From the IMG/VR virus record IMGVR_UViG_2531839485_000010: 27,146 nt of DNA. One strand, given 5' to 3'. How positions within the stretch are numbered: position 1 is the stretch's first letter; each line of letters opens with the position of its first letter. The notes below the pieces were generated by a model. The model did not search any database. It was not told the DNA's origin and saw nothing but the letters and a program-made list of their open reading frames with translations. The stretch is from a virus (Duplodnaviria; Heunggongvirae; Uroviricota; Caudoviricetes). Position numbers and translations under genes: made by a program. Positions 4,509 to 5,438 of the stretch are shown one piece after another.

Positions 4509-5438
4509 TCAGTAGTTATGTACTGAAGGAGGTAATTCTTTATTCTTAAGTCTCATCCATGCGGAAAGATTCGTTGGTCCGTCTGGCTCATTAATATCAA
4601 CATCTCGTGTGTGGTTTATTAAAACGTCTCTCGCCATTCCGATAACATACGAGAACTCATGACCGTAGTCGTAGCATCTGCCGGAATAGTTCGATTGAAT
4701 TTGTTTTAGCGCCGGATACAGTTCGCGGAATAATGCCTGTGAGCGGTTGGCATAATCCCATAACCATACAAGGCTGTTTGCTTCTTTTGCAGAAAGCTCG
4801 TTGGTTTTCTTCTCTTGTTTGCCAATGAACTCACCTTCAAGTGGAACTCGAGCTGCAAGTGACAGTGCTTCGGTAAACTGCTCCTCACTGATTTCTTTGT
4901 ACGAACATCCAAAATGGGATTTCAGTGACGACCACATGGTGATCATCGCCTTAGCCTGTTTTTCTTTTGGCAGAGACTGACCGCGACTCATGACAAGTTG
5001 TTTAATGGCTTCCTGCTGTTCAGTGGTGATTTTACCCGGCAACGCCTTTTTAGCTTTGCGTGGGTTAACTACATGGCCTTTAGTCCAGTACTCGTAGAGA
5101 ACATCGTCACACTCTTCCTGATACTGGATTACCTTGTCGCGGATTTCATGGCGGACTTTGTTAGGACTGATGGTTTGCAGCCAGCCAGCAAGTTTACGAA
5201 GTGCCAAACAAATAATCTCACGGCACTGTTCATCACCAGGAAGCTGCATTGTGATTTTCACAATGGAGGTTTTAAACCGTTACTTTATTTTCGTAAACTG
5301 TGAAGCCCAATCCATACCCATGCCTTCAACGATAGGTTTCATTGGGGTGTACGGCTCACCGTTGTGATTGACAACATAAAGCTCTGCGCCGTGGAATGGT
5401 ACATTGATAGTAGATACTGCTGTTGCTATACTTTTCAT
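4509..5438 (-). pseudogene. ant: Antirepressor (Ant-like) gene interrupted by an in-frame TAA at 5280..5282; N-terminal 52 codons (5283..5438) plus a 250-aa ORF (4509..5261)
   Basis: Position between arc and tailspike is as in P22 immI. ATG at 5438 has an AGGA SD; the N-terminal 52 codons (MKSIATAVSTINVPFHGAELYVVNHNGEPYTPMKPIVEGMGMDWASQFTKIK) are in the same frame as the 250-aa ORF, separated only by one TAA. The internal ATG at 5261 has no SD (preceded by CCTCC). Total 310 codons, about the size of P22 Ant. Confidence 0.6.
5404..5432 (+). promoter_or_regulatory. Near-consensus sigma-70 promoter antisense to the ant 5' end (TTGATA-17 bp-TATACT); candidate Psar
   Basis: -35 TTGATA at 5404-5409, 17-bp spacer, -10 TATACT at 5427-5432; predicted start about 5439, exactly opposite the ant start codon and SD. 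Confidence 0.45.

Follow-up and report, generated by a model that had tools for sequence, protein, structure and literature searches.

We found that the antirepressor gene (ant) of a P22-like Escherichia coli prophage is interrupted at codon 53 by a single TAA, which is very likely a recent loss-of-function nonsense mutation (Q53*) in a dispensable gene of the immI region (the "ant moron"). The stretch of DNA analysed here (27,146 nucleotides, hereafter the window) spans from the integrase to the late genes of a Lederbergvirus-type prophage from one clone of diarrhoeal (ETEC) E. coli, and it is mosaically related to CUS-3, phiv205-1, and Kapi1. The stop lies inside the N-terminal domain of the protein, replaces a glutamine codon, is restricted to a single lineage, and is surrounded by intact neighbouring genes. 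The ant region adjoins an IntS-type integrase, which in the related prophage of strain 730V1 is located beside a tRNA-Arg gene. The virion genes of the window have the same lengths as those of the viable phage Kapi1, and the prophage is therefore probably still functional apart from ant.

On the minus strand, the frame that begins at 5438 runs through 52 codons to the TAA (5282-5280) and then through 256 sense codons to a TGA at 4511-4509. A listing of open reading frames gives the two pieces separately, as 5280..5438 (52 aa, with an ATG start) and 4509..5261 (250 aa). The first-pass annotation had placed both pieces in one frame, parted only by the TAA, and had equipped the ATG at 5438 with a Shine-Dalgarno sequence; translation agrees with the former, and an AGGA 9 nt upstream of the ATG bears out the latter. 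Its description of the downstream start as an ATG at 5261 without a Shine-Dalgarno sequence holds only in the second part, as the codon is GTG (5261-5259) and the first in-frame ATG past the stop is at 5249 (5249-5247). These are the possible reinitiation codons, and on reading the sequence upstream of each we saw nothing resembling a Shine-Dalgarno sequence. GenBank entries for the P0299438 isolates have a 246-aa "antirepressor protein ant" annotated from the ATG at 5249, and gene callers list the 52-aa 5' piece as a separate gene in sibling assemblies. The mutated base, 5282, is C to T on the coding strand, equivalent to G to A on the plus strand.

Reading the stop as glutamine gives an ant product of 309 amino acids that contains both domains of the P22 antirepressor family. 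P22_AR_N (PF10547) matched residues 12-123 with an E value of 2e-44 (150.9 bits, cut-off 30.7), and P22_AR_C (PF10548) was found with an E value of 5e-30 (103.8 bits, cut-off 22.4). The 52-aa piece matches positions 2-42 of the 115 in the P22_AR_N profile and the downstream piece matches positions 52-114 followed by P22_AR_C, with the stop at about position 43. Because consecutive stretches of one profile are matched, the two open reading frames are parts of one gene and not a chance juxtaposition. Aligned over its full length with P22 Ant (309 versus 300 residues), the read-through protein has 58% identity (E value 6e-123) and the same two Pfam domains; the middle parts of the two proteins are different mosaic modules. 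In a further difference from P22, codon 53 of the window gene is a stop, and the full-length protein is not encoded. To judge from its sequence, the gene is a member of the P22-type antirepressor family by descent and a pseudogene as encoded.

The separate listing of the two pieces by gene callers is what would be seen if they were naturally separate genes, a small upstream open reading frame followed by a shorter antirepressor. The domain match just described argues against this, as does the sense codon at this site in 30 of 30 close relatives (see below), and the two-piece arrangement with this stop was seen in this clone only. There were 4389 homologues in total, and the best 120 of these are almost all 300-334 aa long and cover the whole query; the few shorter entries among them are mostly labelled partial. 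The first-pass annotation had pointed to homologues that naturally begin at the downstream codon, behind a separate conserved small open reading frame, as the pattern that would speak against a nonsense mutation, and none of the best 120 of the 4389 begins there. The probability of naturally separate genes is close to nil, and the alignments already refute this reading.

A sequence search of the PDB did not find a solved relative of Ant. Structure prediction for an intact 309-aa relative (P0021, 98% identical), made with an alignment of 30 sequences, gave a mean pLDDT of 44 and a pTM of 0.28. Residues 20-89 may tentatively form a strand-strand-helix-helix-strand-strand-helix arrangement, in which the stop would fall near the end of the second helix, in a model too poor to predict an effect on the fold.

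The first-pass annotation had proposed an alignment with intact ant genes as the way to identify the original codon, and this alignment gave glutamine as the ancestral residue. In 30 of 30 related ant genes, comprising 24 prophage or phage relatives and six metagenome contigs, all from outside the lineage of the window, codon 53 is CAA or CAG and the mutated base is C. These relatives were retrieved from E. coli prophages, virus contigs, and metagenomes and were counted if the stretch of sequence was present. E. coli strains W4, Ec15103, rl0044, and PA45B, which have a 309-aa ant, show AAG-CAA-CGG or AAG-CAG-CGG at the site of AAG-TAA-CGG in the window, and CUS-3 and S.Kent 1-2-1 have CAA at codon 53 in the alignment. 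The intact genes of W4 (WP_063081428.1) and PA45B (WP_000835353.1) are as long as that of the window, have 96-98% nucleotide identity to it from end to end, and are flanked by arc, sar, and tailspike in the same way; they differ from it at codon 53 (CAA or CAG, against TAA in the window) and at residue 97 (Pro, against His).

Only one clonal set of isolates carries the stop allele. A degenerate pattern in which the first base of the codon was left free was searched against IMG/VR, metagenomes, and a collection with one genome per species. In IMG/VR it matched 21 contigs, of which only one (L026) has T; the six metagenome contigs matched all have C, and the one-genome-per-species collection gave no match. 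An identical copy was not found in 5426 complete E. coli genomes, where the best match to a 301-nt query was 98.7% identical. L026 has a single mismatch to positions 1-6226 of the window and is therefore the same prophage. T was found only in L026, in the Logan assembly of SRR446899, and in the NCBI contig APYC01000035, with the proteins named from E. coli P0299438.5 and P0299438.11. Look-up of the exact 52-aa and 246-aa proteins likewise returned this lineage only, in six Logan contigs (e.g. SRR446899), five long NCBI-class contigs (e.g. GCA_000357005.2, APYC01000035), and four listed GenBank accessions that name at least two isolates (P0299438.5 and P0299438.11).

A sequencing or assembly error, in which the true base is C and ant is intact, had been left as an alternative by the first-pass annotation. 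Such an error would explain a single-base difference from all relatives, and every carrier does come from one sequencing project. However, at least three assembly versions with differences elsewhere carry the T, namely the window, L026, and L029-L031. Position 957 (in int) is G in the window and T in L026, and position 8234 (in the gp16 homologue) is G in the window and T in L029-L031; the siblings are therefore separate assemblies and not copies, and they are identical to the window throughout ant. The differences at 957 and 8234 may be within-patient variation or consensus differences. One carrier is an independent Logan reassembly of SRR446899, and the exact proteins recur across the contigs, accessions, and isolates counted above. 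The P0299438 isolates, colonies of a single ETEC patient, were sequenced on the Illumina HiSeq2000 with >200x coverage (PMC4462620), a depth at which substitution errors do not outlast consensus calling. All carriers of the allele are from one patient's isolates and one sequencing centre, and the independence is that of isolates and assemblies, not of laboratories. Given that T recurs in assemblies with SNPs elsewhere and that the Illumina depth exceeds 200x, a sequencing error is very unlikely.

The nonsense mutation appears to be young. Of the changes in the window ant, only four are private when 24 relatives are compared: Q53* (5282), P97H (5149), and two synonymous changes (5100 and 4995), and the same alignment revealed no further disruption of the frame. 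P97 is nearly invariant, being shared by 90% or more of 30 diverse homologues. Four private changes would fit a young pseudogene, a number too small for any test of rates. The mutation is probably recent, since a single clonal group of isolates carries the stop allele and the 256 codons beyond it are still open. The view of the first-pass annotation that a recent nonsense mutation inactivated ant thus agrees with the glutamine found in 30 of 30 relatives and with the single clonal set; the loss of Ant activity, and the phenotype that would follow from it, we infer from the cut domain.

The coordinates of ant and the neighbouring features are collected in Table 1.

Table 1. Features of the immI region in the window
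Feature	Position	Strand	Evidence or remarks
mnt, 82 aa, Arc/Mnt ribbon-helix-helix repressor, divergent from arc	5939..6187	+	PF03869
Pant-like promoter upstream of arc	5861..5889	-	TTGACT, 17-nt spacer, TATCTT
arc, 50 aa, Arc repressor family	5672..5824	-	PF03869, E 6e-12
57-aa ORF between arc and ant	5502..5675	-	ORF listing; hypothetical protein in relatives
sar antisense RNA, complementary to ant ribosome-binding region	5440..5507	+	Rfam RF00262
Psar-like promoter inside 5' end of ant	5404..5432	+	TTGATA, 17-nt spacer, TATACT, extended TG
ant (antirepressor), whole gene, now apparently a pseudogene	4509..5438	-	309 codons + stop; codon 53 = TAA
5' fragment of ant	5283..5438	-	would encode 52-aa peptide; about first third of P22_AR_N only
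Premature stop TAA (Q53*)	5280..5282	-	mutated base = window 5282
3' remainder of ant, frame still open	4509..5279	-	256 sense codons + TGA
P97H missense, lineage-specific, CCT to CAT	5148..5150 (changed base 5149)	-	C in 24/24 relatives
Terminator-like hairpin + T run, ant/tailspike interval	4472..4491	-	conserved in CUS-3, phiv205-1, S.Kent 1-2-1
Tailspike gene	4298-2475	-	downstream of terminator-like hairpin

The genes occur in the order gp16 homologue (PF26808), P63C-domain gene, small open reading frames, mnt (+), arc (-), 57-aa open reading frame, ant (-), and tailspike (-). This is the location of immI (mnt, arc, ant, sar) in P22, between the gene 16 homologue and the tailspike gene, and as in P22 mnt is divergent from an arc-ant unit that is followed by a terminator and the tailspike gene. 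The sar antisense RNA lies opposite the ant ribosome-binding site, as it does in P22; it matched RF00262 over its full length (1-68) with 81.8 bits against a gathering score of 43, and its terminator hairpin is identical to that of P22 sar. Psar is inside the 5' end of ant in both. The Psar-like promoter of the window has 10 of 12 consensus matches, and its position suits a sar start at 5440.

The window differs from P22 in having an extra conserved open reading frame of 57 aa between arc and ant; in P22 this interval is only about 70 nt long. The frame begins at a GTG that overlaps the stop codon of arc (GTGTGA), and at its 3' end it overlaps the 3' end of sar. Exact copies of the protein were found on 198 contigs, and a profile search gave no Pfam match. 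A database cluster groups this protein with 300-aa Ants, but BLASTP revealed no meaningful similarity, and we regard the grouping as a clustering artefact.

The first-pass annotation had held that the mutation leaves the mnt/arc circuitry intact, and at the sequence level this is so. The exact Mnt protein was found on 233 contigs across the Enterobacteriaceae and the exact Arc protein on 15 contigs, complete chromosomes included; the presence of exact Mnt, Arc, and 57-aa proteins on other genomes means that these are ordinary circulating alleles. The mnt-arc intergenic region has zero differences from strain PA45B. Private changes near mnt, arc, and sar are limited to two substitutions in Arc and a single base of the sar hairpin loop, at which the window has the P22 base. 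Thus mnt, arc, the Pant/Pmnt promoter region, and sar all look intact. We also considered whether loss of ant could compensate for a broken mnt or operator and rejected this, as the promoter region is unaltered and Mnt is an exact match to the protein on 233 contigs.

A single C-to-T transition converted Gln codon 53 from CAA to TAA. Translation from the sar-controlled start at 5438 would halt after 52 residues, within P22_AR_N, and since the stop is inside this domain the full-length antirepressor would not be made. According to Susskind and Botstein (1975), as cited in PMC11016777, P22 Ant binds and inactivates the immC (C2/CI-type) repressor. The expected consequence of Q53* is the loss of Ant-mediated inactivation of the prophage's own and heteroimmune repressors, while ordinary repressor maintenance, lytic growth, and the virion genes would not be affected.

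A working antirepressor could still be made if the UAA were read through or if a 246-250-aa protein lacking the N-terminus were produced by reinitiation. The downstream frame is fully open, the two starts are 18 and 30 nt past the stop, a distance over which bacterial ribosomes can reinitiate, and P22_AR_C and about 60% of the N-terminal domain would remain. Against this, neither GTG 5261 nor ATG 5249 has a Shine-Dalgarno sequence, so a reinitiated product would be poorly made, and it would be without the first ~40% of P22_AR_N. The missing segment holds many residues that are invariant in the family (I11-G17, E28-P35, M40-G41, W44, Q47, and K50), and the best 120 natural homologues offer no example of a protein that begins here. 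P97H is a second lineage-specific substitution, at a nearly invariant proline, as expected under relaxed selection. UAA is the least leaky stop codon. The sole tRNAs of the window, tRNA-Thr(tgt) and tRNA-Asn(gtt) at 24295-24450 (-), were considered as possible suppressors and rejected, as neither is one. We consider it improbable that a working antirepressor is still made; a low level of UAA read-through or of reinitiation may occur. It is about equally improbable that the allele is not neutral decay but was selected in the ETEC clone, where it could block Ant cross-induction of other resident lambdoid prophages or lock the prophage in, or that a reinitiated truncated Ant has residual or altered activity.

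As in Kapi1, the tRNA-Thr(tgt)/tRNA-Asn(gtt) pair is flanked by the Q-like antiterminator region and the lysis genes.

Loss of ant by Q53* appears to be an ordinary knockout of a dispensable prophage gene, of a kind already documented in P22-like phages. Villafane and coworkers called the ant moron the most fluid section of the late operon; in their account ant is degraded in HK620 and Scho1 and absent from several other phages (PMC2629481). The outcome in the HK620, Scho1, and ST64T-type ant morons is the same as in the window, namely that the dispensable ant moron gene is lost (PMC2629481). The lesion of the window is a single point nonsense mutation in an otherwise untouched gene, not a truncation or deletion, and so it appears to be the earliest stage of decay in a known kind of event.

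Three further cases of degraded or missing ant were seen among the contigs retrieved. A closely related ant gene in IMGVR_UViG_2778261448_000010 is independently disrupted by a +T frameshift at codon 38 (GTTGA-AGG to GTTGATAGG), found in one contig only. In GCA_014485835.1, ERR12735583, and GCA_037403455.1 (L040-L042), P22-type ant remnants of 247 aa at 1501-2244 are without the first 53 codons, and the DNA upstream of the remnant is replaced by unrelated genes, a YafO-toxin gene among them; this is a deletion or recombination path to the loss of ant. The prophage of E. coli 730V1 (NZ_CP061764.1, locus 3316-11231), which adjoins tRNA-Arg, has an integrase, an acyltransferase, and a 607-aa tailspike as in the window, with ISKpn26 beside int. 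Its ant moron has a single Arc/Mnt-family (mnt-like) gene and is without ant.

For annotation, ant in these assemblies should be treated as one pseudogene and not as a 52-aa gene followed by a 246-aa "antirepressor protein ant", and predictions of the inducibility of this prophage should leave out the Ant pathway. The allele gives a clean, datable view of how decay begins in the ant moron, a fast-changing part of P22-like prophages. It may be of use in studies of prophage domestication, though it settles no open question.

The ant moron of the window contains two further genes between mnt and the gp16 homologue, a P63C-domain protein at 6597-7583 (-), of 328 aa from its ATG, and a 154-aa open reading frame at 7665-8129 (+). 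Elsewhere in the window, at 1308-2365 (+), an O-antigen-type acyltransferase gene (Acyl_transf_3) is split into open reading frames of 79 aa and 256 aa in different frames. The run of A at 1510-1516 has seven residues in the window and also in the sibling assemblies, and eight in the only intact close relative (E. coli O19:H7 730V1), which is 354 aa long and 99.7% identical. If the Q53* allele had been selected, the frameshifted acyltransferase would count as another change to the accessory functions of the prophage driven by the host. The split gene may be another pseudogene among the accessory genes, or a slipped-strand on/off switch.
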